From the IMG/VR virus record IMGVR_UViG_3300022602_000033: 64,000 nt of DNA. One strand, given 5' to 3'. The translations under genes were made by a program, and so were the position numbers. Shown here one piece after another: positions 1 to 61,844 of the stretch (its first letter is position 1; every line of letters starts with the position of its first letter). Under the pieces are notes generated by a model, which did no database searches, was not told where the DNA came from, and saw nothing but the letters and a program-made list of their open reading frames with translations. The stretch is from a virus.

Positions 1-222
1 CGTGAACCACACACGGCCTATGCGTTCTGGGCAGTGGTGGGCAAGATCATCACAGTGAAGACTCATCAATACTACAACAAGGGCAGCATGCACGGGCTGG
101 AAAAGCGCAAGATTGCCAATAAGTATGCAGAGATACCTGTGGATGATCTGCTGGTACGCTGGCCCCAGTTCTGGGAACAGCTGGAGCAGGCTATAATATT
201 CCACAAGCTCAGCGAGGGATGA
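1..222 (+). CDS. Hypothetical protein, 5'-truncated by window edge
   Basis: Frame 1 is open from base 1 to TGA at 220-222, which overlaps the ATG of the next gene (ATGA). Confidence 0.6.
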   Translation, partial: REPHTAYAFWAVVGKIITVKTHQYYNKGSMHGLEKRKIANKYAEIPVDDLLVRWPQFWEQLEQAIIFHKLSEG

Positions 223-581
223 ACATGAGAGCAGCTGTAACATTGACAGAATCAGCACAAGCGCATATTACCAACATACTGTCTGGTAATCCCGGCAAGC
301 ATCTGCGTGTGGCAGTGAACAACAAGGGCTGCAGTGGACACAAGTATGAGTATGACCTCAGGGACTGGGATGACCATGCCAAGTTTGATGAGGTAGTGGA
401 CTGGGATGGTGGCCGCTTGGTCATAGACGGAACCAGCCTCATGGCACTGCTGGGCAGTGAACTGGATCTACAGACCACGCAGTTTGAATCTCAGCTGGTG
501 TGGCACAATCCCATGGCAGTGAATGCCTGCGGCTGCGGTGAAAGCTTTCAACTGGTCACGGACATACATGCTCATTATTGA
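219..581 (+). CDS. iscA: HesB/IscA/SufA-family A-type Fe-S cluster carrier protein
   Basis: 120 aa with LTESA N-terminus, KGCSG and C-terminal NP..CGCGESF: the three conserved Cys of A-type carriers. Confidence 0.93.
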   Translation: MNMRAAVTLTESAQAHITNILSGNPGKHLRVAVNNKGCSGHKYEYDLRDWDDHAKFDEVVDWDGGRLVIDGTSLMALLGSELDLQTTQFESQLVWHNPMAVNACGCGESFQLVTDIHAHY

Positions 582-1161
582 TCGTCGCTGGACCACTCGG
601 CTATGGTACAAGCGGTTCACGCATGCCGTGGACATTGCGTGCGACCCACAGATGGACACAGATCCGGTAAAGTGGGCCCGCAAGCACCTCAAAGGCCGAG
701 CTAGGACCTACAGTGATTATCAGCGCACAGGCTCTTGGCCCAAGTGGGTGCGCACTCGCAAGAGCGTGCGCCTCTATGTGACTGGCAGCGACTACCAGAT
801 GGTGTTGGACAACTGGGGCCCTCGTGTGCGCATGGTCAGCATGCCTTTCAGTGCCACAGCTGAAGCAGAGCTGCTCAGCGGCATGATCATCAACCTGCGC
901 GACAAGCTCTATTGGAACCGCTATCGCTATGCCATCAACTTCTACTGCAAGAATGGTGTGAAGTCCGGGTTGGCAGAGTGGATCAGAGACTGCTTGTCCT
1001 CGGACAAGCGAGCAGTGCGATTGGGCAGAGGCACTCACTTTCCCATACTGTATCTCAGAGATGAGAGCGACATGGTCTTGGTCAAGATGGTGGAACCGGC
1101 ACGTATCATACAGATCACTCGTGCCTACACCCACAGTGAAATCGTCTCAGCCCTACTATAA
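568..1161 (+). CDS. Hypothetical phage protein (basic)
   Basis: Long ORF. ATG at 568 (MLIIDRRW) overlapping the iscA end is preferred over 523. Confidence 0.7.
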   Translation: MLIIDRRWTTRLWYKRFTHAVDIACDPQMDTDPVKWARKHLKGRARTYSDYQRTGSWPKWVRTRKSVRLYVTGSDYQMVLDNWGPRVRMVSMPFSATAEAELLSGMIINLRDKLYWNRYRYAINFYCKNGVKSGLAEWIRDCLSSDKRAVRLGRGTHFPILYLRDESDMVLVKMVEPARIIQITRAYTHSEIVSALL

Positions 1162-1164
1162 ATA
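1157..1164 (+). promoter_or_regulatory. T4-type late promoter TATAAATA
   Basis: Exact T4 late consensus immediately upstream of the structural gene at 1189. Confidence 0.75.
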
Positions 1165-1188
1165 TCCTGCATATTGCGCAGGAACACC

Positions 1189-3978
1189 ATGGCCACAGCT
1201 CCAAGTTGGATAACCACCCCTAACCTAGGCGTGTATTCAGAGACCTACAGCTTCAACATCAACCCCATCGTGGTGGAGTTTGTGGCTATCAACGGCAACA
1301 CTGTGGCACAGATCAACGGGGCACTGCCCTTGGGCCTCAGTTGGCAGGCAGTGGGCAGCAACGTGGAGGTCACTGGCGAGAGCACAGAGATATTCACTGA
1401 GACCTTTGGAGACATAACCTGGCGCATCACGGGCTCAGATGGTGCTGTGGCTGATCGCAGCTATCATATACAGATCAACCCTGCACTGTTGCCTCCCAGC
1501 TGGTTAGGTCAGCCACAGTTCCTAGGCTATGCGGCCAGTGGCGGTACCAGCACCTATAAGGTCACTGCTCATTCTGTGAGCAACCTGAACATTGCATACA
1601 GCATACCTCTGTTCACGCCGCCCACAGGCATCAGCATTGTGGGCAGTAACGGTTTAATAACCTACAGCGCACCGGTGACAACCACTGACCAGACCATCAG
1701 CTTTCCCGTGAGGGCCACAACAGGGGCTGTGAGCAGCGATCTCACGGTCAGCATCGACCTGCTCACTGTGCCTCATGCGCCTGTGTGGTACACCAACAGC
1801 GGGTTGCTGCAGATAGTCACCGAGGGAGAATTTGTTGAGATTGATCTGGTTGCCTATGACAGCAGCGGTGCAGTGATCACCTATGCCGTGGTGAACAGTG
1901 TTCCGGCATTGCCCTTCACGCTCACTGCCACAGGTCTGATATACGGTCATGCTCCCACGCTGTATAACACCACTGTGTATCAGTTCACGGTCAGCGCTAC
2001 CAGCGTGAACGGCACAGCCACACAGACCATGGACATCATAACCGAACCAGTGACCATAGGTGCGCTGCTGTATTGGAACAGCCCCAGCAACTGTGGCACC
2101 ATCAGCGACGGGGCATATGTCACGCTGGACGTGAGCGCTACCAGCAAGCGCAGCGTGATAAACTACAGCATCGTTGGTGGCATACTGCCTCGCGGATTGA
2201 TACTGAACAGGCAAGACGGTATACTATCAGGTTTCGCAGAATACCAGACCAGAGATCGCAGCTATCTCTTTGATGTCAGTGCCAGCGATGGCATACAGAC
2301 CATCGTTCGCACCTTCTCAGTGACCATACTGCGCAGCACTCAGTACCAGTACATGAGCATGACCATACCGGTTGAAGGCAGCCTCAAGGACATCTATTAT
2401 CAATACATCGGAGCTACCATCAACAGCACCTGGGTTCCTTACAGCAGCGTCACGCCTCAGAGCGTGCTGTATCCGACATCCATCCAGCTGATCAATGGCC
2501 TCAACTATGCCATAGACGATCCTGCAGCAGCCATATACTTTGCCAATCTATCGCTGAACACCACAGAGATAATGATAGGAGCCAGCACCAACGTCAACGT
2601 GTCGCCCAGCACCACGCTGTTTTATAGTCCCATACTGGATGCCAACGCAGGAGCAGCAGCACAGTATGCCCAGGCCAACAACGTAACGATCTCAGCCACT
2701 GCCACCCTGAGCGTGCACACTGGACCCAAGATAGTCATAGTGGTAGCTGATGCTGGCACTTGGTTAGACAGTGCCACGGTTGGTACCACGGTGAGGCTCA
2801 CAGCACAGGGTACCACAAACATATGGATGCAGGGTTCTGTGACAGCATATGTGAGCGGCAGCACAGTGATGAGCATTGCTGTGACCCAGACCAGCGGCAG
2901 CGGCACCTACAGCAACTGGCAGCTGAGCCTAGCTCCTAGCTATCCACCCAGCTTGACAAACATGCGCAATGAGCTCATAGCCGGGCTGGGCTGGGTCAGC
3001 GACGGTCAAGGATCAGCAGCACAGCTGTTGCCGCTTATAGATCCCACGACCACTGCCGTGATAGGCGCAGAGATAGTGGATCCTGGCAACGGTTATCTCT
3101 ATGGCCCCGGTCTGACAGTGATTGGCTCAGGCAACGGCGCGGTATTAGCAGCCAATCTCACAGTGATCAGCGCAAACATCACCGCAGCTGGCACCGGTTG
3201 GGCACTGGGAGATCAGATACTGCTGCCACAACCTGCGGTCACACCAGCACAGCTCGTGGTCAGTGCTGTGAACAACAGTGGTGGTATCACTGCTTTGACC
3301 CTGACCACAGGCGGCGAATATGCCAGCTTTCCCGCAGGCGAACAGCTGATAACCAACGACGCAGGACTGCCAGCACGCATCAGCATCAACCTGGGAGTGG
3401 GCAATGTCTGGGTAGCTGCTGGCGGCAGCAACTATGTGGCCAGTGGCAGCACCATCAGCACTTCAGGCAGCGAGCTGCTGCCCAGCTGGCAGCAGACTTG
3501 GACACCCTATCTGGCACTGGGCACGGTGTTCACAGAGTATGGTGGACAGGTCGTGGGCAAAGAAACTGCCACCGTGACTTCGCAGCTGTACTATCAGCGT
3601 TGGCCCCTGCAGCATGTGATACTGGAACTGCAGGGCATCAATTGGACTGGCGACACCACCTTTGATCAGCAATATACCAGCTTTGATGGCGGTGCCACTG
3701 CCTGGGGCGAGTGGCTGGAACCCCGAGACACCATACTGGACCAAGATCTGACCATATTCAACCAAACCAACACGCGCTTCGACGATGACTATGCAGCATG
3801 GCAGGATTATGCATATTATGCCTGGGGTAGCACGCAGTTTGATGACCAGTTCACCATATTTGACCTCTACAGCACTGTGTTTGATAACGGACCAACGCCA
3901 ACTGCCAGCATCACGCTGCTGCGCAGGCTGCTGCGCATAGTAACCCAAGAGATCAGCGGCCACAACGTGGTGGTATGA
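1189..3978 (+). CDS. Virion structural protein (probable baseplate wedge component) with tandem Ig/cadherin-like domains
   Basis: AGGA RBS then ATG at 1189. Repeated PxW...G.LP.GL.L...G.I.G beta-domains; C-terminal T-x-F-D repeats. Confidence 0.7.
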   Translation: MATAPSWITTPNLGVYSETYSFNINPIVVEFVAINGNTVAQINGALPLGLSWQAVGSNVEVTGESTEIFTETFGDITWRITGSDGAVADRSYHIQINPALLPPSWLGQPQFLGYAASGGTSTYKVTAHSVSNLNIAYSIPLFTPPTGISIVGSNGLITYSAPVTTTDQTISFPVRATTGAVSSDLTVSIDLLTVPHAPVWYTNSGLLQIVTEGEFVEIDLVAYDSSGAVITYAVVNSVPALPFTLTATGLIYGHAPTLYNTTVYQFTVSATSVNGTATQTMDIITEPVTIGALLYWNSPSNCGTISDGAYVTLDVSATSKRSVINYSIVGGILPRGLILNRQDGILSGFAEYQTRDRSYLFDVSASDGIQTIVRTFSVTILRSTQYQYMSMTIPVEGSLKDIYYQYIGATINSTWVPYSSVTPQSVLYPTSIQLINGLNYAIDDPAAAIYFANLSLNTTEIMIGASTNVNVSPSTTLFYSPILDANAGAAAQYAQANNVTISATATLSVHTGPKIVIVVADAGTWLDSATVGTTVRLTAQGTTNIWMQGSVTAYVSGSTVMSIAVTQTSGSGTYSNWQLSLAPSYPPSLTNMRNELIAGLGWVSDGQGSAAQLLPLIDPTTTAVIGAEIVDPGNGYLYGPGLTVIGSGNGAVLAANLTVISANITAAGTGWALGDQILLPQPAVTPAQLVVSAVNNSGGITALTLTTGGEYASFPAGEQLITNDAGLPARISINLGVGNVWVAAGGSNYVASGSTISTSGSELLPSWQQTWTPYLALGTVFTEYGGQVVGKETATVTSQLYYQRWPLQHVILELQGINWTGDTTFDQQYTSFDGGATAWGEWLEPRDTILDQDLTIFNQTNTRFDDDYAAWQDYAYYAWGSTQFDDQFTIFDLYSTVFDNGPTPTASITLLRRLLRIVTQEISGHNVVV

Positions 3979-10437: not shown

Positions 10438-11853
10438 ATGGCAAGAGATACGCGTCTGTGGGTTGAGATTCATCGCCCAAGAGACCTCAGCGAGTATGTG
10501 TGGGTCAATGACGCACAGCGGTCACAGGTCGAGGGCTGGGTGCGCGACAAGACCATCCCGAGCATGATTTTGTCCGGGTCCCCCGGCACGGGCAAATGCC
10601 TTGGTGCGGATGAGAAGATCACGATCAGAGTTGATCGTTCCAGATTGATCGAGCCAAACAGTTCATACTTGGATGAAAGCCACACCACCACAGTGCAGTT
10701 GGAAATACGCATGTTGGATCTGTTTGCCATGCTGGGTTGTGAATCTGCTGCATACGAGCAAGCACAGGACATATCGCAAGCTGGGATCACAGTCAACACA
10801 CCAAACGGTTGGCAACCCATACAGGCGTTGGTGCGCAAGCACACGGCCGCAGCCAGATATTCGCTGGCCAATGATCTAGATGTGGTCTGTGCTACCAAGC
10901 ATCTGGTGTTTGAGAATGGACAGTGCAAGACCATAAACACCTGTGCATCAGTTGACACCATCACTGGGCCCGTGGATATCATAGGTAGCGAATATCTGGG
11001 CGACCAAGATCTCTATGACATCGCCATACCAGCTCCACATGTGTACATGACCACCAATGGTGTGCTACATCACAACACCAGCCTTGCCAAGTGCCTGTTC
11101 AATGAGCTGGGCGTGGACAGCAGTGACATCCGTTATGTGAATGCCAGCCATACCAACGGCGTGGATGACATGCGTGCGCTGGGCAGGTTTGCTGAGACCA
11201 TGCCCATGGGAGAGTTCAGATACGTGCTGCTGGACGAAGGTGACATGCTGAGCATTCCGGCGCAGACAGTGCTGAGAAACATGATGGAAGAATACAGCAA
11301 CATCTGCCGCTGGATCATCACCTGCAACTACCCACACAAGATAATCCCAGCGCTGCATTCAAGGACGCAGGGCTTCCATATCGAGCACCTAGACCGTGAG
11401 CTGTTCGTAGAGCGCATCGCCACGATCTTGATCGCAGAGGGCGTTGATCTCACTGCGGAAAATCTGGAGATCTTGGATGAATACAGCACAGCCACATACC
11501 CAGATCTGAGAAAGTGCATCAACCTCTTACAGCAGAACTGTGCAGATGGTCAGCTGAAACGTCCTGCCAAGGGCGGTGGCCAGGGCACCATGGATTACAT
11601 GATTGCTGCCATCAACCTGTTCAAGCAGGGCAAGATACATGATGCTCGCAAGATCGTGTGTGCCAATGCCAGGACAGAAGACTATGAAGAGATCTACAAG
11701 CTGCTGTATCGCAACTTGGATTGGTGGGGTGCCAGCGAGCAACAGCAACATGCTGCCATCGTGATCATAGCAAACAGGCTTCGCGACCATGGACTAGTAG
11801 CAGATAGTGAAATAAATTTGGCCGCAGCGCTCATAGAGTTGGCCAGCCTCTGA
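10438..11853 (+). CDS. Sliding-clamp loader AAA+ subunit (RFC small / T4 gp44-like), intein-containing
   Basis: LWVE.HRP box, Walker A GSPGTGK/T, NAS, Walker B LLDEGD, LR..MEE, ALHSR, DLRK.IN.LQ. Confidence 0.93.
   Translation: MARDTRLWVEIHRPRDLSEYVWVNDAQRSQVEGWVRDKTIPSMILSGSPGTGKCLGADEKITIRVDRSRLIEPNSSYLDESHTTTVQLEIRMLDLFAMLGCESAAYEQAQDISQAGITVNTPNGWQPIQALVRKHTAAARYSLANDLDVVCATKHLVFENGQCKTINTCASVDTITGPVDIIGSEYLGDQDLYDIAIPAPHVYMTTNGVLHHNTSLAKCLFNELGVDSSDIRYVNASHTNGVDDMRALGRFAETMPMGEFRYVLLDEGDMLSIPAQTVLRNMMEEYSNICRWIITCNYPHKIIPALHSRTQGFHIEHLDRELFVERIATILIAEGVDLTAENLEILDEYSTATYPDLRKCINLLQQNCADGQLKRPAKGGGQGTMDYMIAAINLFKQGKIHDARKIVCANARTEDYEEIYKLLYRNLDWWGASEQQQHAAIVIIANRLRDHGLVADSEINLAAALIELASL
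10597..11076 (+). mobile_element. Mini-intein (160 aa, no homing endonuclease) in Walker A of clamp loader
   Basis: Begins CL after GK; block B AT.H; block F LYDI; ends NGVLHHN followed by extein Thr. Removal restores GTGKTS. Confidence 0.93.
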
Positions 11854-11860
11854 TCAGTAA

Positions 11861-12973
11861 TTAAAGTTCAGCACTTGCTGTAAAGTAATTTGCAGCTGTG
11901 GTCCACCAAGCACAGCCTCCTGTGCCACCCGTGGATGTAGCTCCAAAACTAAACGCTGTTTGTCCCGTATACAGCACGCTAGGGGTGTTGTAATCTGAAG
12001 TTTTTTGTATAGTGCCTACTATAGATACCGTGGGTACTATACGTTTATACACCATCGGCACATTTACCACTGCTGCCCACCAGCCGGCAGCATTGGATCC
12101 TTGTATAGCATAGAAGCCGTGATCAGTGTTACCCAGTACTTCAAAGTAGCGCTGGCATAAGAACAGTTCTTGTCCATACTGCCTGCGCTCAAACGGTGTG
12201 GCCACAGAACCTACCTCGGCCTGTGCGTAGCTGATATCAACACTGACACCGGAAGCAATACCACTATTAAAGGCTATGCCAAATTCCTGGCCAAGATTGG
12301 CAGTGCTGTTCAGAGTAGCAGTGACTGTTATGATGTTCAATCCAGAATTCACAGTAACACCTGTGCTAAAGCTGGTGGTGGTGCTGGCATAGTTGTTGGT
12401 AGCAGTCGGGCTTAAAGCGTATAGGGATACTCCGGTTATAGCAGTGCTGGCGTAGATCAACACCCTGAATGTGACCTGTGTACTTGATAGATCATCAGTG
12501 TTGAGATTTTCCACACGCTGACCAAAGTTGCAGCCAGTGCTGCCAGTGTTTCCAGTTATGCGGAATGCATAGGGAGTACCAGTGTTGGTACCAGCTACCT
12601 GTTGGCCGGTGAGCGTTGCACCTGTGGGATAGATGAACCATCTGTCCACACCATAGTTAAGCTGACCAAGGCTAGCTGTGTAGCTGGCTCCGCTGCGACG
12701 CTGGTCAATTTCCATGGCACCATTTATCAACCTATTGCGCATGCCAAAGCTTTTGCTAGTCATGAACTGGCTGGCATCGCCCATGGTAACTACACCATTG
12801 ACCTGCAGCGCAGTGGTGGGTGTGCTGGTGCCTATGCCTATGCTGGTGCTGGCTGTGACTGTAGATGCTGACAGTGACTGAGCGGTTAACACCACGTTGT
12901 TGCCAGTGTTGTTCAACACTGCAGATCCAGCGCTTGCGCTCAGTCCCAGGGTTCCGTCAAGGTAAAGGCTCAT
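11861..12973 (-). CDS. Fibre/adhesin protein, CQRY-AEL family (class A N-terminus)
   Basis: RNRLINGAM.IDQR...ATPFERR.YG.EL.LCQRY...SAEL; carbohydrate-binding-like beta domain. Confidence 0.8.
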   Translation of the reverse strand: MSLYLDGTLGLSASAGSAVLNNTGNNVVLTAQSLSASTVTASTSIGIGTSTPTTALQVNGVVTMGDASQFMTSKSFGMRNRLINGAMEIDQRRSGASYTASLGQLNYGVDRWFIYPTGATLTGQQVAGTNTGTPYAFRITGNTGSTGCNFGQRVENLNTDDLSSTQVTFRVLIYASTAITGVSLYALSPTATNNYASTTTSFSTGVTVNSGLNIITVTATLNSTANLGQEFGIAFNSGIASGVSVDISYAQAEVGSVATPFERRQYGQELFLCQRYFEVLGNTDHGFYAIQGSNAAGWWAAVVNVPMVYKRIVPTVSIVGTIQKTSDYNTPSVLYTGQTAFSFGATSTGGTGGCAWWTTAANYFTASAEL

Positions 12974-12976
12974 GTG

Positions 12977-14077
12977 TTATAGCTCCGCTGAAAATTTGAC
13001 ACGTGCCGATGTGTTAGCAGCCTGCGCGAATGATGCGTTGCCTGCTACCAATCCCGATGCCACTGTGATCTGAAGCAGCGCAGTCTGCACATCAGCTGTG
13101 CTCATGGTGCTGGCCGTCCAAGTCAATGCACTGCCCACGCTGGCATTGACCATGTACCAGTCTGAGTTAGCTGACACTGAAAAATTGCTGCCGGAGGGTG
13201 CTGTTCTCAGTGTAACAGGGAACACTATGGGGATGTATGCTGTGGTACCAGATGCTGCCTGTCCGGTTGGCAGAGCTTGAGCAGCCACGCCACCTATCTG
13301 GAAATAGTAGCGCTGGCACAGTGACAATTCCTGTCCATAAAGCCTACGCTCGAACGGTGTCGCTATTGTGCCTGGTTCTACCTGTACGCCAGTTATGTAA
13401 CCAGCCACGCCAAAACTGCCGATGTAAACCAACACAGCAGGCTGTGAGCCAGTTGGCGTCCCGCTCACCGTGAACGTCAAGGACACTTTAGACCACGATG
13501 TTGTGAAGCTGAAAGTCTGCGCTGATCCCCAGTTGTTGAGAGATCCTGCTGCTACACCATCTGCCCAGCCGATGCTGGCTGTTGAGGTACCAGCTGATGC
13601 GCCCTGTACCCAGAAGCTCATGGTCCAAACAGAACCAATCACATATTCCCCCGGCAGTCCGGCACCAGGCAGTTCTATGCTTTGGCGGAGATCAGCATTG
13701 TTGAGATAGGCTGAATAGGTGAAGCCTTGTCCCGAGGGCACAGTGGTCGAACGTGCATAGTCTCCAGCAGCGGCACCTGCTTTATATGATGCGAATCTGT
13801 CAGCTCCAAATATCACGCTGTTAGGCTGGAAAGACGTGCCACGCTGCCATATCTGCATGGCACCATTGATGATGCGATTTCTCATGCCAAAGCTGTTCAC
13901 GGTCACGTACTGGCTGCCATCGCCCATGGTCACGGCCACGTTGCTTCCCATGGTCAGCACGTTGTTGGCCAGCGTGAGCTGCGTGCCGCCGTAGCCAGTG
14001 CTGAACTGCAGCTGACCGCTGGCATCAGGCTGCAGTGCTAGTCCAGTACCAGTGTTGCTGGTGATAACTGATGCCAT
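12977..14077 (-). CDS. Fibre/adhesin protein, CQRY-AEL family (class B N-terminus)
   Basis: Same motif set; N-terminus MASVI..TGL...DASGQLQF. Confidence 0.8.
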   Translation of the reverse strand: MASVITSNTGTGLALQPDASGQLQFSTGYGGTQLTLANNVLTMGSNVAVTMGDGSQYVTVNSFGMRNRIINGAMQIWQRGTSFQPNSVIFGADRFASYKAGAAAGDYARSTTVPSGQGFTYSAYLNNADLRQSIELPGAGLPGEYVIGSVWTMSFWVQGASAGTSTASIGWADGVAAGSLNNWGSAQTFSFTTSWSKVSLTFTVSGTPTGSQPAVLVYIGSFGVAGYITGVQVEPGTIATPFERRLYGQELSLCQRYYFQIGGVAAQALPTGQAASGTTAYIPIVFPVTLRTAPSGSNFSVSANSDWYMVNASVGSALTWTASTMSTADVQTALLQITVASGLVAGNASFAQAANTSARVKFSAEL

Positions 14078-14080
14078 GGT

Positions 14081-15193
14081 TTATAGCTCCGCCGTGAAAT
14101 CAAGATAATTTCCGCTGCTGCTGGCGATGATCATGGCTGCTCTGCCAGTGGTCAAGCTTCCGCCTGCGCTGTTGGTGCCCACGTTGAAGCTGGCAGCGAC
14201 CGTGCCAGATGATTGCGCACTGATGCTGGTAACACCATTGATCACGGAACCATCATACACGCTGACTCCGCTGTAGCCAACGGTTGGCGCTGCTCGCATG
14301 GTCACCGGATTCACTGCTGTGATCTGGGCCGCGCTAGTAGCGCCATTGACCGCACCCACTGCCATGGTCTGGCTGCCAGATGCTGCCACATATGTGTTAC
14401 GGTAATAGTACCTCTGGCACAGTGCTAGCTCTGTAGTAAACTGCCTGTACTCAAACGGCGTTGCTGTGCCAGCCCGCTCCAGCTGCACACCAGTGATGTA
14501 GAATGTGGCACCTGAGGTACCCACTACATTCACCGAACCTGTTGGAGCTATGTAGGTACTATTGGTCCAAGCATTGGCAGGTCCGGTAAAGCTGCTACCT
14601 GTACCTAGTGCCCAGCTTACCAATATGCCTGCAGTGTTATTGGTTGGATAACTTCCTGTGGTATCGCCAGGGATGATTACAGTAATATATGTCCAGGTAT
14701 TGGCTGCTGAGATTGTGTACAAGAAAGGATACCATCTGGCACCACTTCCCTGTGCAATACTAGCGCCAAATGATCCAGTCAGCGATGAGTACACATAGAA
14801 ACTCAGAGTCACTGTCTTGGCATTGGCAGTGCCCCATGCTAGATCGGCTGTGTTGTAGCCTTCAATGCTCTGCCGTATGAGAAAATAATCACTGGATAGA
14901 ACGCTGTAGGCGCTGGATGATGTGAGACCCTGGTAATTAGCAAAACCCACGGGCGGACTAACTGAACCAGCATTCTGTTGGGCGGTGAATTTGGATACCT
15001 GTGTTCCTTGAAACCAGAATCTGTCAACCATGTATTGGCCGCTGGTTGGGGTTATAACAGACCCGGCATTCCTCTGGTCTATGACCATGGCGCCGTTGAT
15101 GATGCGGTTCCTGAAACCAGTGTAGCCGCTGGTGGGCTGAGCTGACCCATCTGGGAAGGTTAGACCGTTGATGCCATCCACATACAAGCTCAT
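14081..15193 (-). CDS. Fibre/adhesin protein, CQRY-AEL family (class A N-terminus)
   Basis: Start at 15193 (MSLYVDGING) overlaps the upstream stop as ATGA; same motifs. Confidence 0.8.
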   Translation of the reverse strand: MSLYVDGINGLTFPDGSAQPTSGYTGFRNRIINGAMVIDQRNAGSVITPTSGQYMVDRFWFQGTQVSKFTAQQNAGSVSPPVGFANYQGLTSSSAYSVLSSDYFLIRQSIEGYNTADLAWGTANAKTVTLSFYVYSSLTGSFGASIAQGSGARWYPFLYTISAANTWTYITVIIPGDTTGSYPTNNTAGILVSWALGTGSSFTGPANAWTNSTYIAPTGSVNVVGTSGATFYITGVQLERAGTATPFEYRQFTTELALCQRYYYRNTYVAASGSQTMAVGAVNGATSAAQITAVNPVTMRAAPTVGYSGVSVYDGSVINGVTSISAQSSGTVAASFNVGTNSAGGSLTTGRAAMIIASSSGNYLDFTAEL

Positions 15194-15663
15194 ATGATCA
15201 CCCACCTAGTTCCTGGTTGCACTGTGACGTTGGCCCCTGGGTTCAGAGTGATGTTGCCCACGCTGAACGCATTCTGGTTTGTGGGTATGGTATAGGCTGC
15301 GCTGATGGTCTTGTTGGTGCTCTGTATCACCCCGCTGGGATCAGTGGTGAAGTTGTTGGCGTTCATGTTGCCACCAACCTGCAGCGCTGTGACAGGGCTG
15401 GCAGTGCCTATGCCCACGTTGCCACCATAGACGTTCAGCGCTGCGGTGGGGCTCACAGTGTTGATACCAACCTGACCAGCAGCATTGATCACCAGCACCT
15501 GCGCAGTGTTGGTCACCAAGCTCAGCGTGTTGGTGCTTGGACTGAACATGCCCACGGGTACCGTGGTACCAACCGCGACATTGACGTTGTTCACAGTGAG
15601 GCCGCCCGTGACGTTGAAGGCACTGCTCTGTGATATCAGCGTGGGTATTACCTGATCAACCAT
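15190..15663 (-). CDS. Short fibre adaptor with C-terminal 'WVII' domain (class D N-terminus)
   Basis: GNVGIGT repeats; C-terminal YTIP...NA.SVG.IT...VTV..G.RWVII. Confidence 0.75.
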   Translation of the reverse strand: MVDQVIPTLISQSSAFNVTGGLTVNNVNVAVGTTVPVGMFSPSTNTLSLVTNTAQVLVINAAGQVGINTVSPTAALNVYGGNVGIGTASPVTALQVGGNMNANNFTTDPSGVIQSTNKTISAAYTIPTNQNAFSVGNITLNPGANVTVQPGTRWVII

Positions 15664-15666
15664 GTG

Positions 15667-17169
15667 TCATAGCTCCGCATTGGCTGAAAGCGTTGGAGTT
15701 CCAGATCCACCGCTGACTGTGGCGTAAACTTGCCCAGTTGCCGTAGCTGTGACTCGTAGTGAGGCTCCGCTAGCTCCACTTAAACTCACTGTTGGCTGTC
15801 CATTGTTACCGCTAACGTTCCATGTGCCGTTCACAGCAACCACAGGAGATGCTCTCATGGTCACAGGCCATCTAACCATAGCGTCTAGATAGCTGCCACT
15901 GGTTAGATAGCCAGATGCTATCAGTGTTCCATCGCCTATAAGCAGGTAATACCTCTGGCAATCAACTAATACTTGATCATAGAGCTTGCGTTCAAATGGT
16001 GTGGCTACTGGACCTGGCTCTAGTTGGCAACCTGTGAAATCTATGTAATCCGCAGCACCTGCTGTGCCAGTGGTAACCCAGCTCCATCTCACGGCCATCT
16101 CGCCTATGCCAGCGCCTACTGGTATTGTAAATGAGAACCTGGTTCTTGTGGTAGTTGGTGTAAACGGGGCATTTAATATCTGAGTCTGGCCAGTCCACGT
16201 TGCACTGTTTAGAGATAATGTGCCTTGATCAGTGCCAGTTCCTGTCCATAGCTGTACTGATGCACTACCACCGCTATAGTTAGCACCAGCTGTGGCATAG
16301 AAGCTAAGTGTCACAGTCTGGCTTGATAGATCCACACAGTTATAGCTTTCTATGGTTTGCCCGGCATATAAAATCGGAGTACTAGCCTGGCCGTTACCAC
16401 GCTGTACACGCATAGCATAGGGGAAATCATATGCGCCGGTGGCTACTTGAAACACAGTGGCTACGCTGGTAATGCTGGCCAATGTCCACCATCTATCTGG
16501 ACCAAACACACCAGAACCAGAGCTAGTTATGGTTGCACCGCTACCAGTGGCCTGCCTCTGTGATATCTGCATGGCACCGTTTATCAAGCGATTGCGCAGG
16601 AAGCTGCTGCCCATGATCACGGTGTTCTGCACGTTCACGTTACCCTGCACGTCCAAGGTCTGTTGTGGGGCTGTGCTACCTATACCCACGTTGCCCGTGC
16701 TGGTTATGCGCATGCGCTCTGAAACACCAGAACCATTAGAAAGGTTAGTTCCAAAAAGTAAATTATCGCCAGAAGCGCCTAAACTAACACCGTAACCAGA
16801 GGTAGATGATTGTAAATTCAACCAAGATGTAACCGAAGTGCCTGCTGATGCAAATTGAGCCAGTAAATCTCCATATGCTGCGAATGTGTTATAGCCATTT
16901 ACGGTTAATTTCCCTCTAGATGACACAGTTCCAATATTGAGGTTGCCACCAGCATCAATGACCATCTGCTGTGCACCGCTGGTCCTGAACTGTATGGGCA
17001 GTGCGTTCTGCGTGCCTATGACCAGCGCACTGCCGTTGAAGCTGATGTTGCCACCACCAGTGCCGATGCCCACGTTGCCACCGAAGACTGTGTTGCCAAG
17101 GATGTCCGTGACCATGGCGATGTTGCCAGCGCTGGGATTGACTATGTTTACGACTTTGAGATAGCTCAT
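15667..17169 (-). CDS. Fibre/adhesin protein, CQRY-AEL family with ERMRI shaft repeats
   Basis: MSYLKV start, ERMRITS.GNVGIG, RNRLING...CQRY...NAEL. Confidence 0.8.
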   Translation of the reverse strand: MSYLKVVNIVNPSAGNIAMVTDILGNTVFGGNVGIGTGGGNISFNGSALVIGTQNALPIQFRTSGAQQMVIDAGGNLNIGTVSSRGKLTVNGYNTFAAYGDLLAQFASAGTSVTSWLNLQSSTSGYGVSLGASGDNLLFGTNLSNGSGVSERMRITSTGNVGIGSTAPQQTLDVQGNVNVQNTVIMGSSFLRNRLINGAMQISQRQATGSGATITSSGSGVFGPDRWWTLASITSVATVFQVATGAYDFPYAMRVQRGNGQASTPILYAGQTIESYNCVDLSSQTVTLSFYATAGANYSGGSASVQLWTGTGTDQGTLSLNSATWTGQTQILNAPFTPTTTRTRFSFTIPVGAGIGEMAVRWSWVTTGTAGAADYIDFTGCQLEPGPVATPFERKLYDQVLVDCQRYYLLIGDGTLIASGYLTSGSYLDAMVRWPVTMRASPVVAVNGTWNVSGNNGQPTVSLSGASGASLRVTATATGQVYATVSGGSGTPTLSANAEL

Positions 17170-17195
17170 TGCGCGGATCCGGCTAGTGTGCGGGA

Positions 17196-17201
17196 TATTT
17201 A
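17196..17201 (-). promoter_or_regulatory. Late promoter core TAAATA
   Basis: GCTAAATATC on - strand upstream of 17169. Confidence 0.65.
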
Positions 17202-17220
17202 GCTGGGCTAGCTTTGGCTA

Positions 17221-17316
17221 TTATCCATAGAGCACAGTGTTGTTGCTACTGTTGTTTAACACGGCAGATCCGCTGCTGGCGCTTATGCCAAGTGTTCCGT
17301 CGAGATAAAGGCTCAT
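17221..17316 (-). CDS. 31-aa mini-ORF: N-terminal plug only (paralog of the 11861 gene N-terminus); may be a remnant
   Basis: Reads MSLYLDGTLGISASSGSAVLNNSSNNTVLYG then TAA TAG; GGAG RBS at normal spacing. Below the ORF-track cutoff. Confidence 0.55.
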   Translation of the reverse strand: MSLYLDGTLGISASSGSAVLNNSSNNTVLYG

Positions 17317-17319
17317 GTG

Positions 17320-18894
17320 TTATAGCTCCGAGCTTACATACATGCCAACGCCAGTTAGTGCGCTGTTGAGATTGTTGCTGGAAAAGAACATGTAGCCCAT
17401 GCCAGTTGGTAAGGTCGAAGGAGCTACTAAGTCAAACAATATCACCTGAGAATTGATAACACTGCCCCCGTATTGCGTGATCGATGTTGGTCCGGTGTTT
17501 ATACCAGTGCCAACATAGCCATTTGACCCGCTGGCGAATGTAGAGGCCATGGTCTGCCAGTACCAAGTGGTGCCACTGATCAATCCAATTGACATTGTGC
17601 CGCGCTTGGGCACCAACATGTTTACCACGGCCTTGGCTGCGCTGCTGGTGGCATTGTACGTGGTTATACCACCGGCGATGTTTTCGTAATATCTCTGGCA
17701 AAGCTGCAATTCAGTTCCGTATAGCCTGCGCTCAAAAGGAGTGGCCACGCTGCCTATCTCCAGCTGCACCCCTGTGATATTAAAGGTAGAACCGTTGGTG
17801 TTCACCATGTTCACAGCACCAGTTGCCCCGTTATAGTTACCAGTGGCCCAGGCACCAGGTGTGGTAGAACCGGCCGTGCTTATCCCCAGTCCCCATTGTA
17901 TCAGCACGCCTATACCGTTGTTGGTGGTCCAAGCACCGCTGGTCTCTGGGGGTATGACAAGCGATATGAAGGTCCAAGTGTTGGCTGATGCAATGTTGTA
18001 CAGCGCAGGATAGGCTCTAGTGTTGGCACTGTTTTGGAGGCATATGCCAAAATTGCCAGTTAATGAACTGTATACCCAGAAACTCAATGTCGCATACTTG
18101 CCAGCAGCTGTGCCCCAGGCAAAGTCTGCTATGTTATAGCCCTCGATTGATTGGCTGATCCTGTAGAGATCACTACCAACCGTAGTAGCTGCTAGGCTAG
18201 TCACGCCGAGATAGTTGGTGAAACCGCTGGGCGGAGTCACAGAACCAGCGTTCTGCTGCACCGTGAACTTGCTGGCCTGCGAAGAATATGCCTGCCATCT
18301 ATCCAGCGTGTAAGTGCCTGCTCCTGCGGTCACGCTTGCGCCAGCATTGCGCTGATCGATCCTCATGTCACCGTTGATGATCCTGTTGCGAGGTCCAAGG
18401 CTCTGTGCAGTGTTAAACTGTGTAGCATCTGCAAAGCTAACTGTGCCATTAACTTGCAGTGCGCTGATCGGCGCCGTAGTTCCAACGCCAACGTTGCCAG
18501 AGCTGGTGATCCTCATGAGCTCTGTAGCACCACCTTGTGTGTTGAACGTGAGTGCACCGCCTGTGCCCACTGAGATGTTGGCAGTGCTGGTGGTGTAGAA
18601 GTAGAGACCGGTGCTGCTGCTGGCAGTGTTGGTATCACCTATGGCCAGCGCGGTATTGTTGCTGCCAAAGTGGCGCACTGTGAGCTTGCTGGCTGTGACG
18701 TTGGTAGTGGTGCCTATCAGCACGTTGCCCTGCTGGTCCACTCGCATGGCTTCTGCGCCGTTGACCGTGAATCCCATCACTGCGGTGTTGGGCCAGTAGA
18801 TGCCAGCGGTGTTGGTGCCGATGCCTATGGCTGGCGTCTGTGGCGTGCCTTGTGGGTTGACTATGCCAGCGCTGCCTGATAGTGTTAAGGTCAT
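17320..18894 (-). CDS. Fibre/adhesin protein, CQRY-SEL family
   Basis: E.MRI..GNVG repeats, RNRIINGDMRIDQR...CQRY...SSEL. Confidence 0.8.
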   Translation of the reverse strand: MTLTLSGSAGIVNPQGTPQTPAIGIGTNTAGIYWPNTAVMGFTVNGAEAMRVDQQGNVLIGTTTNVTASKLTVRHFGSNNTALAIGDTNTASSSTGLYFYTTSTANISVGTGGALTFNTQGGATELMRITSSGNVGVGTTAPISALQVNGTVSFADATQFNTAQSLGPRNRIINGDMRIDQRNAGASVTAGAGTYTLDRWQAYSSQASKFTVQQNAGSVTPPSGFTNYLGVTSLAATTVGSDLYRISQSIEGYNIADFAWGTAAGKYATLSFWVYSSLTGNFGICLQNSANTRAYPALYNIASANTWTFISLVIPPETSGAWTTNNGIGVLIQWGLGISTAGSTTPGAWATGNYNGATGAVNMVNTNGSTFNITGVQLEIGSVATPFERRLYGTELQLCQRYYENIAGGITTYNATSSAAKAVVNMLVPKRGTMSIGLISGTTWYWQTMASTFASGSNGYVGTGINTGPTSITQYGGSVINSQVILFDLVAPSTLPTGMGYMFFSSNNLNSALTGVGMYVSSEL

Positions 18895-18913: not shown

Positions 18914-20149
18914 TCATTGTATCCTCAATAAATTCCATGTTATGGTCTGTGTAGCCCCAGAACTCTGTGAGGCTGAGATAGTAAGGCTACTAATGGTAAC
19001 TGAGACGCCACTGGCAGATACCAGTGCTGTTACTGTATTGTAGGTATTATTTCCTGCTTGGCGCACGAAATATAAGGTATTATATACCTGCGCTTGGTCA
19101 GCGTTAGGGATGGTCACAGTAAGGAGATAGCTGCGAACCACAGTGGTTGGTAAAGTGATGATCGTATAGGATGTACCAGTCGCACATCCTGCCAGGGAAC
19201 CGTTCACTGAACTGAAGATACCACCTGTAACATATGCTGTGTTAGTTAAACTGCCTGCGCTGGTCGTCGTCCCCACCAGCAGATTGCCGCTGGAGTCGAT
19301 ACGCATGCGTTCTGTGACAGCTGTCCAAAACTGAAGTGTCCCCGCTTGAAAATTGACAATAGAAAAGTCTAAACCATTTTGACCCATCTGTGTGCCGTTG
19401 CCTGACGCAGTACCTGATGTCGGGGTTGTAAACCGAATGAGAGGGTTGGTGCCATTGATTTGAAGATTGGGGGTACCATATCCTGTTGGCGAACTTGTCC
19501 CAAAACCTACGTTGCCGGAGGAGTCGATGCGCATGCGTTCTGCATTGGTTCCGCTATTTGAAGTATAGAAGGCTTGATAAGTATTTCCGCCTGTGGAATA
19601 GGCATTTAATATTAACGCGCCACTTATCCCCGCATAATTTATATAACCATTGTTTGTAGAAGAAGCGCTACTATCGCCAAAAGAAATTTGATTGCCGCTT
19701 GATGCAATCACAGCTAATTTTCCATAACTGCTTGGCGAAGTTGTACCAATCCCGAAGTTACCGCTGGCATCAAGCGTCATTTGAGTGTTGTTGTTGGTGC
19801 CAAAATATAACACGGCGTTGGCCCTGTTATAAATGTAAGCATTGGCCGACCCTGTGCCACCAAGAAGGCCAAGATTGAAATTTCCGCTGGCAGGGTTTGA
19901 GAATCCAATGCCAGTTCCGGGATCATAGATGGCCAGTTTTGTACCCGGCGAAGTCGTACCAATCCCGAGATTGCCGTTGGCATCGATGACCATGGCCACC
20001 CCAGCATTGGTGCTGTAGAAAGTAGGTGAAGTCACGTTGGCCAATGTGTCGTTGACGTTGGGCAAGGTAAGCGTGTTGTTCTGTGCTGCAGTGTTGGCCA
20101 CCAGCTGCACGTATCCACTGCTGTCTCCCAGTAGCTTGAGAGTGCTCAT
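18914..20149 (-). CDS. Fibre protein with multiple ERMRIDSSGN shaft repeats (class C N-terminus)
   Basis: MSTLKL.G.SSG.V.L...TLTLP start; four GN.GIGT/ERMRI units; unique tip. Confidence 0.78.
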   Translation of the reverse strand: MSTLKLLGDSSGYVQLVANTAAQNNTLTLPNVNDTLANVTSPTFYSTNAGVAMVIDANGNLGIGTTSPGTKLAIYDPGTGIGFSNPASGNFNLGLLGGTGSANAYIYNRANAVLYFGTNNNTQMTLDASGNFGIGTTSPSSYGKLAVIASSGNQISFGDSSASSTNNGYINYAGISGALILNAYSTGGNTYQAFYTSNSGTNAERMRIDSSGNVGFGTSSPTGYGTPNLQINGTNPLIRFTTPTSGTASGNGTQMGQNGLDFSIVNFQAGTLQFWTAVTERMRIDSSGNLLVGTTTSAGSLTNTAYVTGGIFSSVNGSLAGCATGTSYTIITLPTTVVRSYLLTVTIPNADQAQVYNTLYFVRQAGNNTYNTVTALVSASGVSVTISSLTISASQSSGATQTITWNLLRIQ

Positions 20150-20150
20150 G

Positions 20151-20993
20151 CTATACTATGCTCCATGTGCTACCACTGCTGATGGTAACTGTTATGCCGT
20201 TGTTGATGGCCACTGGACCAAACGTGCCGGCATTGCTGCCCACGGGCACGGTGTAGTTGGTGGTCACAGTGTTGCCGTTCTGCCAGAATATCTGATCGCC
20301 ACCGCCGCCCTGCGCACCACCCAGCTGACCCCAGCTGGTGCCATTGTAGCCTTCAAACAGGCTGTAGCTGCTGTTGTAGCGCAGTACACCAGCTGTGGGT
20401 GAACCAGGTCGCTGTGCGGTGGTACCCACGGGAACCAGCATGGCATCCGTGCCGTTGATCACCAGCTTGAATGCTGCTGTAGAGGTGTTGATGCCCACGT
20501 TGCCATTGGCATCCCAGCTGGGTCCGCCAGTGCTCAGCTTGGTAGGCGTCACAGATCCATCGTTGGGTATGGCTATGCCGGTGGCATAGGTGTTGACCAT
20601 GATCTCAATGTTGCTGTTCAGCGGTGGTGCACCCTGCAGGAAGGTGATGTTGGTGCCGCTCCAAGTGTAGGTGTTCTTGCGCTGATACACACCTGATATG
20701 TACACGTTGGTGTCCAGGGTGCTGGTGGCATTGTAGTTGCCCGTGGCAAAGGTGGTGGTCACGCCGTTGCCAGTATAGTCGAAGATGCTGATAGCATTGG
20801 TCACCGAAGCCAGGCTGCTGCCATCAGCAAACACCAAGCTGCCAGCCAGCGTGACGTTGTTGACCGTGATGTTGCCAGCGTTCATGTACTGCACGGTTGA
20901 GACGTTGCCGCCAAACACCGCCACGTTGACGTTGCTGGTGCTGCCGCTGCTCAGTGCTAGGTTAGCGAGGTTATATGCGATTGAAGTTGCCAT
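20151..20993 (-). CDS. Fibre adaptor: class E N-terminus, GVYQRK beta-sandwich, C-terminal 'WSIV' domain
   Basis: AYNLANLA; YTGNG..ISGVYQRK..IEI; PVGTTAQRP; NYTVP..NA..GP...VTI..GSTWSIV. Confidence 0.78.
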   Translation of the reverse strand: MATSIAYNLANLALSSGSTSNVNVAVFGGNVSTVQYMNAGNITVNNVTLAGSLVFADGSSLASVTNAISIFDYTGNGVTTTFATGNYNATSTLDTNVYISGVYQRKNTYTWSGTNITFLQGAPPLNSNIEIMVNTYATGIAIPNDGSVTPTKLSTGGPSWDANGNVGINTSTAAFKLVINGTDAMLVPVGTTAQRPGSPTAGVLRYNSSYSLFEGYNGTSWGQLGGAQGGGGDQIFWQNGNTVTTNYTVPVGSNAGTFGPVAINNGITVTISSGSTWSIV

Positions 20994-20999
20994 GCAGCA

Positions 21000-21005
21000 T
21001 ATTTA
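21000..21005 (-). promoter_or_regulatory. Late promoter core TAAATA (near-leaderless transcript)
   Basis: 6 nt upstream of ATG 20993, no SD. Confidence 0.65.
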
Positions 21006-23128: not shown

Positions 23129-23134
23129 TATTTA
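23129..23134 (-). promoter_or_regulatory. Late promoter core TAAATA (near-leaderless transcript)
   Basis: 7 nt upstream of ATG 23121. Confidence 0.65.
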
Positions 23135-24989: not shown

Positions 24990-26486
24990 TCAGCTCCTGG
25001 CCAAGAACGCGCTGTTGGTTACCATGTTAGCCGAGCTCGTTCGCATGCCATCCATGTGCAGCTTCCACCTAAATGCCACCATATCGCGATCTGTGTTGTA
25101 GAATTCTAGCTCGCGATCAGCGCTACACTTATTTACGTGACCCAATCCAGCCAGTACCCAGTTCCACAGCGGCACTCCTGCATAACCATGATAGCCCAGC
25201 ATGTCACCAGCGCTGAGTATCTTGCTGCGGCTCAGCGCCAGCGTATCTCTGACCACGTCTGTCTGTGTCTCGCCTGTGCGCATCCACCGCCAGAACTCGC
25301 TGTCGTCGCGCTGTGTCTGGTAATGTAGGTTGAGGAAGTCGCAGAAATCATCATACATCCGGCTCATCCTGCGGTTGTAGACGTTGCAGCTGCCAGGGTT
25401 TATGGTGTCAGCCGCAGTGTCGCGCAGGTAATCCCTGGTCCAGGTCTGGATCTGCATGATGGTGCTGTGTATGCTGGTGGCTTCAAGTGGTTCGGCAAAG
25501 GCTGCACACAGCCCCAGAGCCAAGCAGTTCTTGTGCCATAGCTGATCTAACCTACCTGTGTCAAAGCTCAGCACACGTATGGGATCTATTGGTCTCCCCA
25601 GCGCAGCTTCTATCTCGGCCTGTGCTTGATCATCTGAGATGAAATCGCCATCATACACATAGCCGCAGCCCCATCTGTCAGCAGTGGGTATGCGCCACAT
25701 CCAACCGCTGCTCTGTGCCCAGGCCAGGGTGGTGCTGTCTGGCTCTTCGCCATCTGCATAGGGCAGTATGAATGGCATGGCTCTGTTGACCGGTAGATAG
25801 TCTCTGTAGCTCTTCCAGGACACGCCCAGCGCATTCATCAGCTTGCGAGCAAAGCCCGTGCAGTCTATGTAGAAGTCAGCAGTGATGGTACGACCGTCTT
25901 GCATGACCAGACCGGTGATGCCATGTTCATCCACCGTGACGTGGGCTATGTCACCTATCACGTGCTTGACACCTTCGGGTTGCACCACCTTGCGGAAATA
26001 GCGACCCACTCCCACTGCATCAAAGTGATAGGCGTTGAGCTTGATCTCGCTGTTCAGACCAGCACCGTCACGGTGATAATTGGTTAAACCGTGCTCGATT
26101 AACCATCCGCATTCGCTGCTGGCATGCCAAGGCAGGTCATTGGCCAGCGCATGCAGGAACATGTAATCTGGTCCCACGCCATAGCTGTTGGTGTTGTCTA
26201 TGGGGCCAACGTATTCATGGCCAACACAGCGCCAATCCCTGTGGCGTATGCCCAGCTTGATGGTGGCCCTGGCTTCTGCTAGGAAATCGGCCTCATCGCA
26301 ACCATAATCCCAGCTCACGTTGTTGATTATGTCTGTGAGCTGACCTGTGCTGCCTTCTCCGGCGCCTATGATTCCTATGCGCTCGCTCTCTATCACGGTG
26401 ATTTCATGGCTGTTGCGCTGTATCTTGGCTATGATCAGAGCTGCCAGCCATCCAGCCGTGCCGCCCCCTGCTATCACTATTTTCAT
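24990..26486 (-). CDS. Flavin-dependent halogenase (tryptophan halogenase PrnA family)
   Basis: GGGTAG FAD motif, IG.GE.S, catalytic-Lys region TIKLGI, FYIDCTGF, WMWRIP, F.EPLEATSI. Confidence 0.9.
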   Translation of the reverse strand: MKIVIAGGGTAGWLAALIIAKIQRNSHEITVIESERIGIIGAGEGSTGQLTDIINNVSWDYGCDEADFLAEARATIKLGIRHRDWRCVGHEYVGPIDNTNSYGVGPDYMFLHALANDLPWHASSECGWLIEHGLTNYHRDGAGLNSEIKLNAYHFDAVGVGRYFRKVVQPEGVKHVIGDIAHVTVDEHGITGLVMQDGRTITADFYIDCTGFARKLMNALGVSWKSYRDYLPVNRAMPFILPYADGEEPDSTTLAWAQSSGWMWRIPTADRWGCGYVYDGDFISDDQAQAEIEAALGRPIDPIRVLSFDTGRLDQLWHKNCLALGLCAAFAEPLEATSIHSTIMQIQTWTRDYLRDTAADTINPGSCNVYNRRMSRMYDDFCDFLNLHYQTQRDDSEFWRWMRTGETQTDVVRDTLALSRSKILSAGDMLGYHGYAGVPLWNWVLAGLGHVNKCSADRELEFYNTDRDMVAFRWKLHMDGMRTSSANMVTNSAFLARS

Positions 26487-28660: not shown

Positions 28661-28666
28661 TATTTA
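28661..28666 (-). promoter_or_regulatory. Late promoter core TAAATA (near-leaderless transcript)
   Basis: 5 nt upstream of ATG 28655. Confidence 0.65.
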
Positions 28667-32827: not shown

Positions 32828-32833
32828 TATTTA
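32828..32833 (-). promoter_or_regulatory. Late promoter core TAAATA within perfect inverted repeat
   Basis: GCCGATAAATATCGGC on - strand, 8 nt upstream of ATG 32819. Confidence 0.65.
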
Positions 32834-39148: not shown

Positions 39149-39154
39149 TATTTA
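39149..39154 (-). promoter_or_regulatory. Late promoter core TAAATA within inverted repeat
   Basis: CAGATAAATATCTG on - strand upstream of the AGGA RBS of 39125. Confidence 0.65.
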
Positions 39155-46535: not shown

Positions 46536-46564
46536 TTGCTGGATATTTATCCGTGGTATATACT
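46536..46564 (+). promoter_or_regulatory. sigma70-type promoter (TTGCTG-17-TATACT)
   Basis: 17-bp spacer; upstream of the AAGGAG RBS of 46584. Confidence 0.55.
46544..46549 (-). promoter_or_regulatory. Late promoter core TAAATA within inverted repeat
   Basis: GGATAAATATCC on - strand upstream of 46518. Confidence 0.65.
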
Positions 46565-61838: not shown

Positions 61839-61844
61839 TATTTA
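61839..61844 (-). promoter_or_regulatory. Late promoter core TAAATA
   Basis: CTGCTAAATATCAG on - strand upstream of the giant fibre gene. Confidence 0.65.

Follow-up and report, generated by a model that had tools for sequence, protein, structure and literature searches.

Branched receptor-binding systems, in which secondary proteins dock via a short 'conserved peptide', were described by Latka et al. in 2019 (PMC6872550). The docking peptides comprise the first 29 aa in the RBP2 proteins of phages KP32, K11 and KP34, and 7 and 11 residues in the tailspikes of K1-5, K1E and SP6 (PMC13352976; PMC6872550). Deletion of the first 29 residues showed that the second protein depends on this peptide for its incorporation (Latka et al. 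2026; PMC13352976). In phage KpV767 the second receptor-binding protein is cut to 69 aa, including the 29-aa conserved peptide; its counterpart in KP-Rio/2015 has 61 aa. Both truncations were read as retrograde evolution, with the remnant as a possible acceptor for a new body (PMC6872550).

The 64,000-nt stretch of DNA analysed here (the window) comes from a large uncultured freshwater phage whose tail-fibre genes form an extensive mosaic array, which runs from about 11.8 kb to beyond 61 kb of the window (roughly 50 kb). Within the array lies a reading frame of 31 codons, hereafter the stub. It resembles the secondary genes of KpV767 and KP-Rio/2015, both Klebsiella podophages, in that a fibre or spike gene appears reduced to little beyond its conserved N-terminal peptide and directly follows the preceding receptor-binding gene. 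All relatives that we found (contigs with L numbers below) are lake metagenome contigs; a distant blastn search of isolate phages (INPHARED) gave only matches covering 3-5% of the query.

Five genes in this part of the window match the PHROG tail-fibre family phrog_4492: 11861..12973 (370 aa), 12977..14077 (366 aa), 14081..15193 (370 aa counted from its ATG), 15667..17169 (500 aa) and 17320..18894 (524 aa). AlphaFold2 predicts a beta-sandwich for the distal domain of the 370-aa protein, matched by Foldseek to carbohydrate-binding modules of the CBM4/CBM22 type (E 1e-6 to 1e-4; TM up to 0.68, normalized by the target). The CBM4/22-like distal domain, with the conserved motifs NRIING and CQRYY, is encoded in the 370, 366, 374, 500 and 524-aa genes and is not encoded in the stub. 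An intact gene of the tryptophan-halogenase family (Pfam PF04820, E 8e-97) is located within the fibre operons as well, at 24990-26486 on the minus strand.

The stub and its gene junction

The stub occupies 17221..17316 on the minus strand. It starts with ATG at 17314-17316 and ends with TAA at 17221-17223, followed in frame by a second stop, TAG (17218..17220, minus strand). Its ATG is located 3 nt past the stop codon of the 524-aa tail-fibre gene (17320..18894, minus strand). A distance of 51 nt separates its end from the ATG of the 500-aa 'type-B' tail-fibre gene (15667..17169, minus strand), which is in the same frame. The first 29 codons (17230..17316, minus strand) make up a 'type-A' N-terminal module, the sole part of the stub homologous to full-length fibre genes. 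The module is followed by two codons and two stops, and then by the 37-nt leader of another gene; thus, the stub has neither a shaft nor a receptor-binding or enzymatic body.

The conserved gene junction in front of the stub (17317..17330, minus strand) consists of the last codons of the 524-aa fibre, its stop TAA (17320-17322) and a 3-nt spacer; a GGAG (17326-17329) is situated inside these last codons. Start codon, spacer and Shine-Dalgarno sequence are all intact and identical to those of the 370-aa paralogue (11861..12973, minus strand), the last gene of the array. In the two copies a 24-nt junction is identical, from the Glu-Leu-stop codons through the spacer to the ATG and three further codons. 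The C-terminus of the upstream gene constrains all of the start signals of the stub but the spacer and the ATG.

This 'AEL-stop-ATG' junction occurs at six places in the window. Nearly all phrog_4492-type fibres, both those at 11861-18894 on the minus strand of the window and the 240 listed metagenomic homologues, end in Ala/Ser-Glu-Leu. At the six window junctions, where the next gene starts 3 nt past the stop, the Glu-Leu codons (together with the preceding G) provide the GGAG ribosome-binding site. The Ala/Ser-Glu-Leu stretch serves three roles, as protein C-terminus, coupling signal and recombination joint.

A repeat search within the window detected a direct repeat of 92 nt, 84% identical (12896-12987 versus 17239-17330; family D10), made of the gene junction and the first 29 codons of 11861..12973, where the module is located at 12887-12973. 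The N-terminus of the 370-aa protein is identical to the stub at 24 of 29 positions (tblastn within the window, E 1e-12), and the likeness ends past codon 29. Over these 29 codons the Nei-Gojobori method gave Sd 11.3 and Nd 8.7 (pS 0.55, pN 0.13). The preliminary description, made from the same DNA, is borne out in these respects: it had reported a 31-codon frame closed by a double stop, a close copy of the first ~30 aa of 11861..12973 behind a common upstream junction, many synonymous differences between the copies, and an intact ribosome-binding site.

The two copies are not the product of a recent duplication of the 5′ end of the 370-aa gene within this genome. Their identity is only 84%, and the stub is nearer to the module class of the Gly-rich fibres, with 26 of 29 residues identical to the fibres of L005 and L006. 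Its pS to the L005 and L008 modules (0.34-0.47) matches the pS of orthologous genes between the window and L005 or L008 (0.27-0.49), determined from the 157-aa gene, the clamp loader and the type-B N-terminus; therefore the stub is an old lineage copy.

Other kinds of signal were searched for in the region. An opposite-strand ORF (17214..17369) received no support, an Rfam scan gave no match, and scans for sigma-70 promoters and intrinsic terminators found nothing.

A portable 29-residue module

The type-A module heads at least seven different fibre bodies in the window and its metagenomic relatives. Sequences carrying it were collected from a metagenome scan with the peptides of both copies (three loci), from homology searches with the neighbouring fibres and from an exhaustive HMMER search with the stub. 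Behind the module stand the body of the 370-aa fibre of the window, those of P0001, P0012 and P0131 (other phrog_4492-type distal domains), that of P0242 (with the distal domain of the 294-aa genes of L008 and L012), that of P0243, and those of glycine-rich proteins of 254-256 aa (L005, L006, L008 and P0244). The distal domain of P0012 is that of the 500-aa gene of the window, and the distal domain of P0131 is that of the 524-aa gene.

When these natural chimeras are listed side by side, the switch of body always falls directly after residue 29. Since two unrelated continuations begin there, the module boundary that the stub seems to mark is a real one, established without recourse to the stub. 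The 29-residue module is a discrete portable unit. The earlier proposal that the stub delimits the minimal docking peptide has thereby gained independent support, as the chimeras change body at exactly this residue.

Full-length type-A genes also have a fixed place. They are last in the array in the window and in L005, L006, L007, L008 and L009, where this can be read. In the window, L005, L008 and L009, where the array end is visible, the type-A gene adjoins the convergent clamp-loader gene; in L006 and L007 it directly follows the position-2 fibre. In the window, L005, L007 and L008 two other fibres stand between it and a protein or domain that ends in a WVII-type motif, which makes it the third; these two fibres keep position-specific N-termini while their distal domains vary. 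Fixed N-termini with varying distal domains are the pattern expected of N-terminal docking modules. Plausibly, then, the type-A module is a docking peptide, as we infer from its portability and its fixed array position. The stub is an ectopic second copy of the module in the window, away from the end of the array. In the AlphaFold2 model of the 370-aa protein, residues 1-80 have pLDDT 43-52 and appear unstructured in the monomer; the model thus says nothing on the structure of the module.

A T4gp10-like branching domain was searched for by sequence in the candidate adaptors. None was found in the 280-aa protein (20151..20993), compared with PDB sequences and Pfam, or in the 157-aa protein, compared with PDB sequences. 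The 280-aa protein had no PDB sequence match and no Pfam family. The 157-aa protein (15190-15663, minus strand) had fibre-shaft matches only, its shaft region being similar in sequence to the solved Bdellovibrio fibre proteins 8ond (Bd2133, E 2e-5) and 8ojn.

The order of parts differs among the arrays. L007 encodes a single 969-aa fibre (212-3121) that combines the N-terminus of the 411-aa gene of the window with the C-terminal WVII-type domain of the 157-aa gene. The window counterparts are separate (18914-20149 and 15190-15663) and flank the 524-aa gene, the stub and the 500-aa gene. In L012 (3162-4367), L013 (1866-3071) and L017 (2010-2972), the N-terminus of the 157-aa 'adaptor' is fused to Gly_rich_2 and not to the WVII-type domain. 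These three arrays have no more fibres after the fusion; therefore, the WVII-type domain goes with the three downstream fibres.

Two features were observed at the array end and next to it. The clamp-loader gene of the window (RFC/gp44-like AAA; 10438-11853, plus strand) has an insertion of 160 residues (54-213) exactly inside the P-loop. The insertion has Cys at its start and His-Asn at its end, followed by Thr; it looks like a mini-intein. The clamp loader of L008 (311 aa) lacks the insertion and is 87% identical outside it. The glycine-rich type-A fibre gene of L008 (6071-6841) is open over 256 codons; the public gene call is a 39-aa fragment, probably a low-complexity miscall.

Joints on both sides of the stub

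The 524-aa gene that precedes the stub is chimeric. Its N-terminal ~135 aa are as in the 294-aa gene of L008 and L012, and its C-terminal domain is 90% identical to P0121 of L014/L015. The left recombination joint of the stub is located at the end of this gene. The last ~130 nt of the gene match L014/L015 at ~93% identity as far as the conserved junction; with the ATG the window passes into the type-A module, whereas L014/L015 have a full-length fibre of another N-class. As to a full-length gene at the position of the stub, the module genes of the relatives are situated at the array end, and what follows the common C-terminal domain in L014/L015 is the fibre of the other N-class.

The right joint is formed with the conserved type-B leader (17170..17206, minus strand). 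Directly upstream of the ATG of the 500-aa gene, 37 nt share homology with the leaders of the orthologous genes in L008, L012, L013, L010, L011 and L017. In this leader the TAAATATC box is followed by a GCCGGA core. Across seven genomes, the window included, the leader has four different upstream neighbours, which in the relatives are a 133-aa gene, an RCC1-like gene or a 109-aa gene. Because its upstream neighbours differ among relatives, the leader belongs to the type-B cassette.

The leader contains a late-promoter-like TAAATA box (17196-17201). On both strands of the window, 12 of 15 TAAATA boxes sit 5-36 nt before the start of a long ORF on the same strand, a placement expected for 1.5%. 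Examples on the minus strand are 17196-17201, 21000-21005, 23129-23134, 28661-28666, 32828-32833, 39149-39154, 46544-46549 and 61839-61844; some boxes are merely 5-8 nt from the ATG. The boxes probably mark late transcription units, and we take their placement to fit a T4-late-type promoter. The 500-aa gene is the first gene of such a unit. Since the TAAATA box of the leader starts the next unit, the stub closes, as its last reading frame, the preceding unit, whose own box stands in front of 20993.

A read-through fusion of the stub with the 500-aa gene was considered and rejected. The stub and this gene share a frame and are 16 sense codons apart, but two consecutive stops intervene. TAA is a genuine stop in the neighbouring genes, and the 500-aa gene and its homologues can be aligned from the first Met. 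Among the listed homologues of the 500-aa gene and of the stub, none has a type-A module before a type-B N-terminus.

Between codon 29 and the type-B leader there are about 25 nt whose origin is not assigned by any match. This join (17203..17229, minus strand) contains the two extra codons, TAA, TAG and ~15 nt. The ~15 nt resemble the 3′ end of the 133-aa gene of L012 at 13 of 15 positions, a score reached by 56 of 1000 shuffles and therefore not significant.

The sequence of the join, taken as 17203-17235, occurs once in the window and nowhere in the fetched loci. This bears on the idea that a contig was mis-joined at a conserved junction of co-occurring strains, so that the stub would exist in no single genome. 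The window appears to be an assembly of an uncultured phage, like its metagenomic relatives, and an exact repeat of 24 nt is indeed present at the left boundary. Yet beyond the 24-mer the two copies are merely 84% identical, and at the right join no repeat is seen that could mislead an assembler. We consider an assembly artefact very unlikely.

The two joints suggest the following order of events. Fibre genes would be built from exchangeable pieces (a short position-specific N-module, a distal binding domain and, optionally, a shaft between them) that are reshuffled at a small number of conserved joints. A distal-domain cassette may have entered the 524-aa gene, carrying along the junction plus the 29 initial codons of the type-A gene next in line in the donor. 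Its right end would have been joined illegitimately, without visible homology, to the promoter-bearing leader of the 500-aa gene. Such a join would have removed the type-A body and whatever preceded the leader (the 133-aa gene in L008 and L012). Start signals, 29 codons of an attachment module, two odd codons and two stops would be the remnant.

Hence our main reading, to which we assign a probability of about 0.65, is that the stub is a scar of recombination which may still be translated: a tail-fibre gene lost its body when cassettes recombined and left its 5′ end orphaned. Several points speak against it. The start signals are intact, non-synonymous differences are few (see below), and none of the relatives recovered is near enough to reveal this site before truncation. 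In addition, the truncation lies at most two codons from the natural module boundary, and a random breakpoint in a gene of 250-400 codons would have only a few percent chance of falling so close.

A rival reading has the stub as a landing pad for recombination, devoid of protein function, that persists because junction and N-module offer homology for capturing a new type-A body by horizontal exchange. The idea corresponds to the 'temporal docking site' that Latka et al. 2019 proposed for truncated receptor-binding proteins (PMC6872550), and the same junction and module are the exchange joints observed in relatives. Second-order selection of this sort is weak, however; the right-hand homology arm needed for capture is absent; and the low count of non-synonymous differences (see below) is left unexplained. 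We regard a landing pad as very unlikely.

Uniqueness, constraint and known counterparts

The stub is unique to the window among all sets searched. An exhaustive HMMER search of 1.84 billion representative proteins found no second stub; its five matches are either 204-401 aa long or a 77-aa fragment that breaks off in unrelated residues. In JGI metagenomes, three loci carry the module, all full length or cut by the contig end. No other genome with the stub peptide was found in IMG/VR and GTDB. In IMG/VR there was also no relative of the 500-aa gene, and the 524-aa gene had distant relatives only. Exact look-ups of the stub peptide and of the 524-aa protein gave no record. Between fibre genes, small conserved genes (52-57 aa) do occur in L010 (7485-7658), L011 (2771-2944) and L014 (2763-2921); they are unrelated to the stub and may encode small assembly factors.

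The peptide is probably still made, to judge from its start signals: the ribosome-binding site and the 3-nt coupling spacer sit in the constrained end of the upstream gene, and translation would persist for that reason. Its amino acid sequence has been kept as well as in the full-length genes. Pairwise pN/pS values are 0.22-0.34 for the stub and 0.21-0.32 for the full-length genes. The dN/dS comparison suggested in the preliminary description could thus be carried out, with equal ratios as the outcome; the ratio does not separate recent truncation from constraint.

The codon listing has four synonymous and two non-synonymous changes private to the stub. Against L005 and L008 the stub shows Nd of 7-8, as few as between functional genes, where neutral drift since the split from L005 and L008 would give 14-19 (Poisson P 0.003-0.06, from crude uncorrected counts). 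So few non-synonymous differences imply either a fairly late truncation or a peptide under constraint. The substitutions are explained equally well if the gene was truncated in the later part of the branch; as a rough bound, the stub state may span up to about 80% of the branch.

Another rival reading is that the stub is a functional cap or decoy. In such a case a late peptide, translationally coupled to the 524-aa fibre, would fill a type-A socket on a WVII/WSIV-type adaptor; it could cap an empty site, or compete with the 370-aa fibre and so tune the number of its copies per virion. The start signals, intact and identical to those of the paralogue, agree with this, as do the preserved amino acid sequence and the truncation exactly at the boundary set by natural chimeras. 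Moreover, the 29-aa N-terminal conserved peptide of KP32 is an experimentally validated docking element of a second receptor-binding protein (PMC13352976). Several observations point the other way. No other genome in the sets searched has such a stub. Upstream of the type-B gene, L008 and L012 have a pair of fibres and one non-fibre gene of 133 aa, and L007 has one fibre after its homologue of 20151; none of the three has a third plug at the position of the stub. The genome has a full-length 370-aa fibre with the same module, so that the socket is not unused and a free peptide would have to compete. A monomeric 31-mer would do so without the trimer avidity of the fibre, and the AlphaFold2 model, with its low pLDDT at residues 1-80, gives no defined structure for the module alone.

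On balance, a functional cap or decoy of either kind is unlikely. That the 31-residue peptide is in fact made and binds a type-A socket on a WVII/WSIV-type adaptor, be it as a blank cap or as a competitor, is an improbable outcome. If true, the phage genome would encode a 'dummy plug' for a branched fibre system, and the minimal docking peptide could be read from it directly.

The preliminary description had left the choice between a deletion scar of a lost branch and a blank cap filling an unused socket of the 20151 product. An origin as a scar has been strengthened by the two joints, the uniqueness of the stub and the ectopic location of its module. The proposed cap for 20151 has been weakened by the relatives without a third plug and by the 370-aa fibre with the same module. 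Under the preferred reading of a recombination scar, the peptide, which has no shaft, trimerising body or binding domain, most likely does nothing of consequence.

By itself, the stub would be an ordinary by-product of the shuffling of tail-fibre genes, and its value is that of a marker. Combined with the metagenomic chimeras, the stub fixes where a portable 29-residue N-terminal module ends. Two exchange joints for host-recognition domains, the stop/start junction and the module end, are thereby identified in an uncultured freshwater phage lineage. The module is a concrete candidate docking peptide for a fibre system without solved parts. If the peptide were incorporated into virions, it would provide the first natural example of a 'blank plug' in a branched fibre apparatus.

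The type-A module has a parallel in the RBP2 proteins of KP32, K11 and KP34 and in the tailspikes of K1-5, K1E and SP6: in all of them a short N-terminal peptide is common to receptor-binding proteins with unrelated distal domains and is the unit of modular exchange and, for the type-A module plausibly, of attachment. Unlike that of the KP32-type peptides, the docking role of the type-A module is deduced only from portability and fixed array position.

The truncated receptor-binding proteins of KpV767 and KP-Rio/2015 are the closest precedent for the stub, and remnants of the kind proposed here are thus known from Klebsiella phages. The peptide of KpV767 has 29 aa, as does the module in the stub. 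Compared with the two Klebsiella proteins, the stub is shorter (the module and two residues), belongs to a large uncultured freshwater phage and has no sequence similarity to the Klebsiella peptides. In contrast to the two-protein Klebsiella systems (PMC6872550), the window also encodes a full-length gene with the same module.
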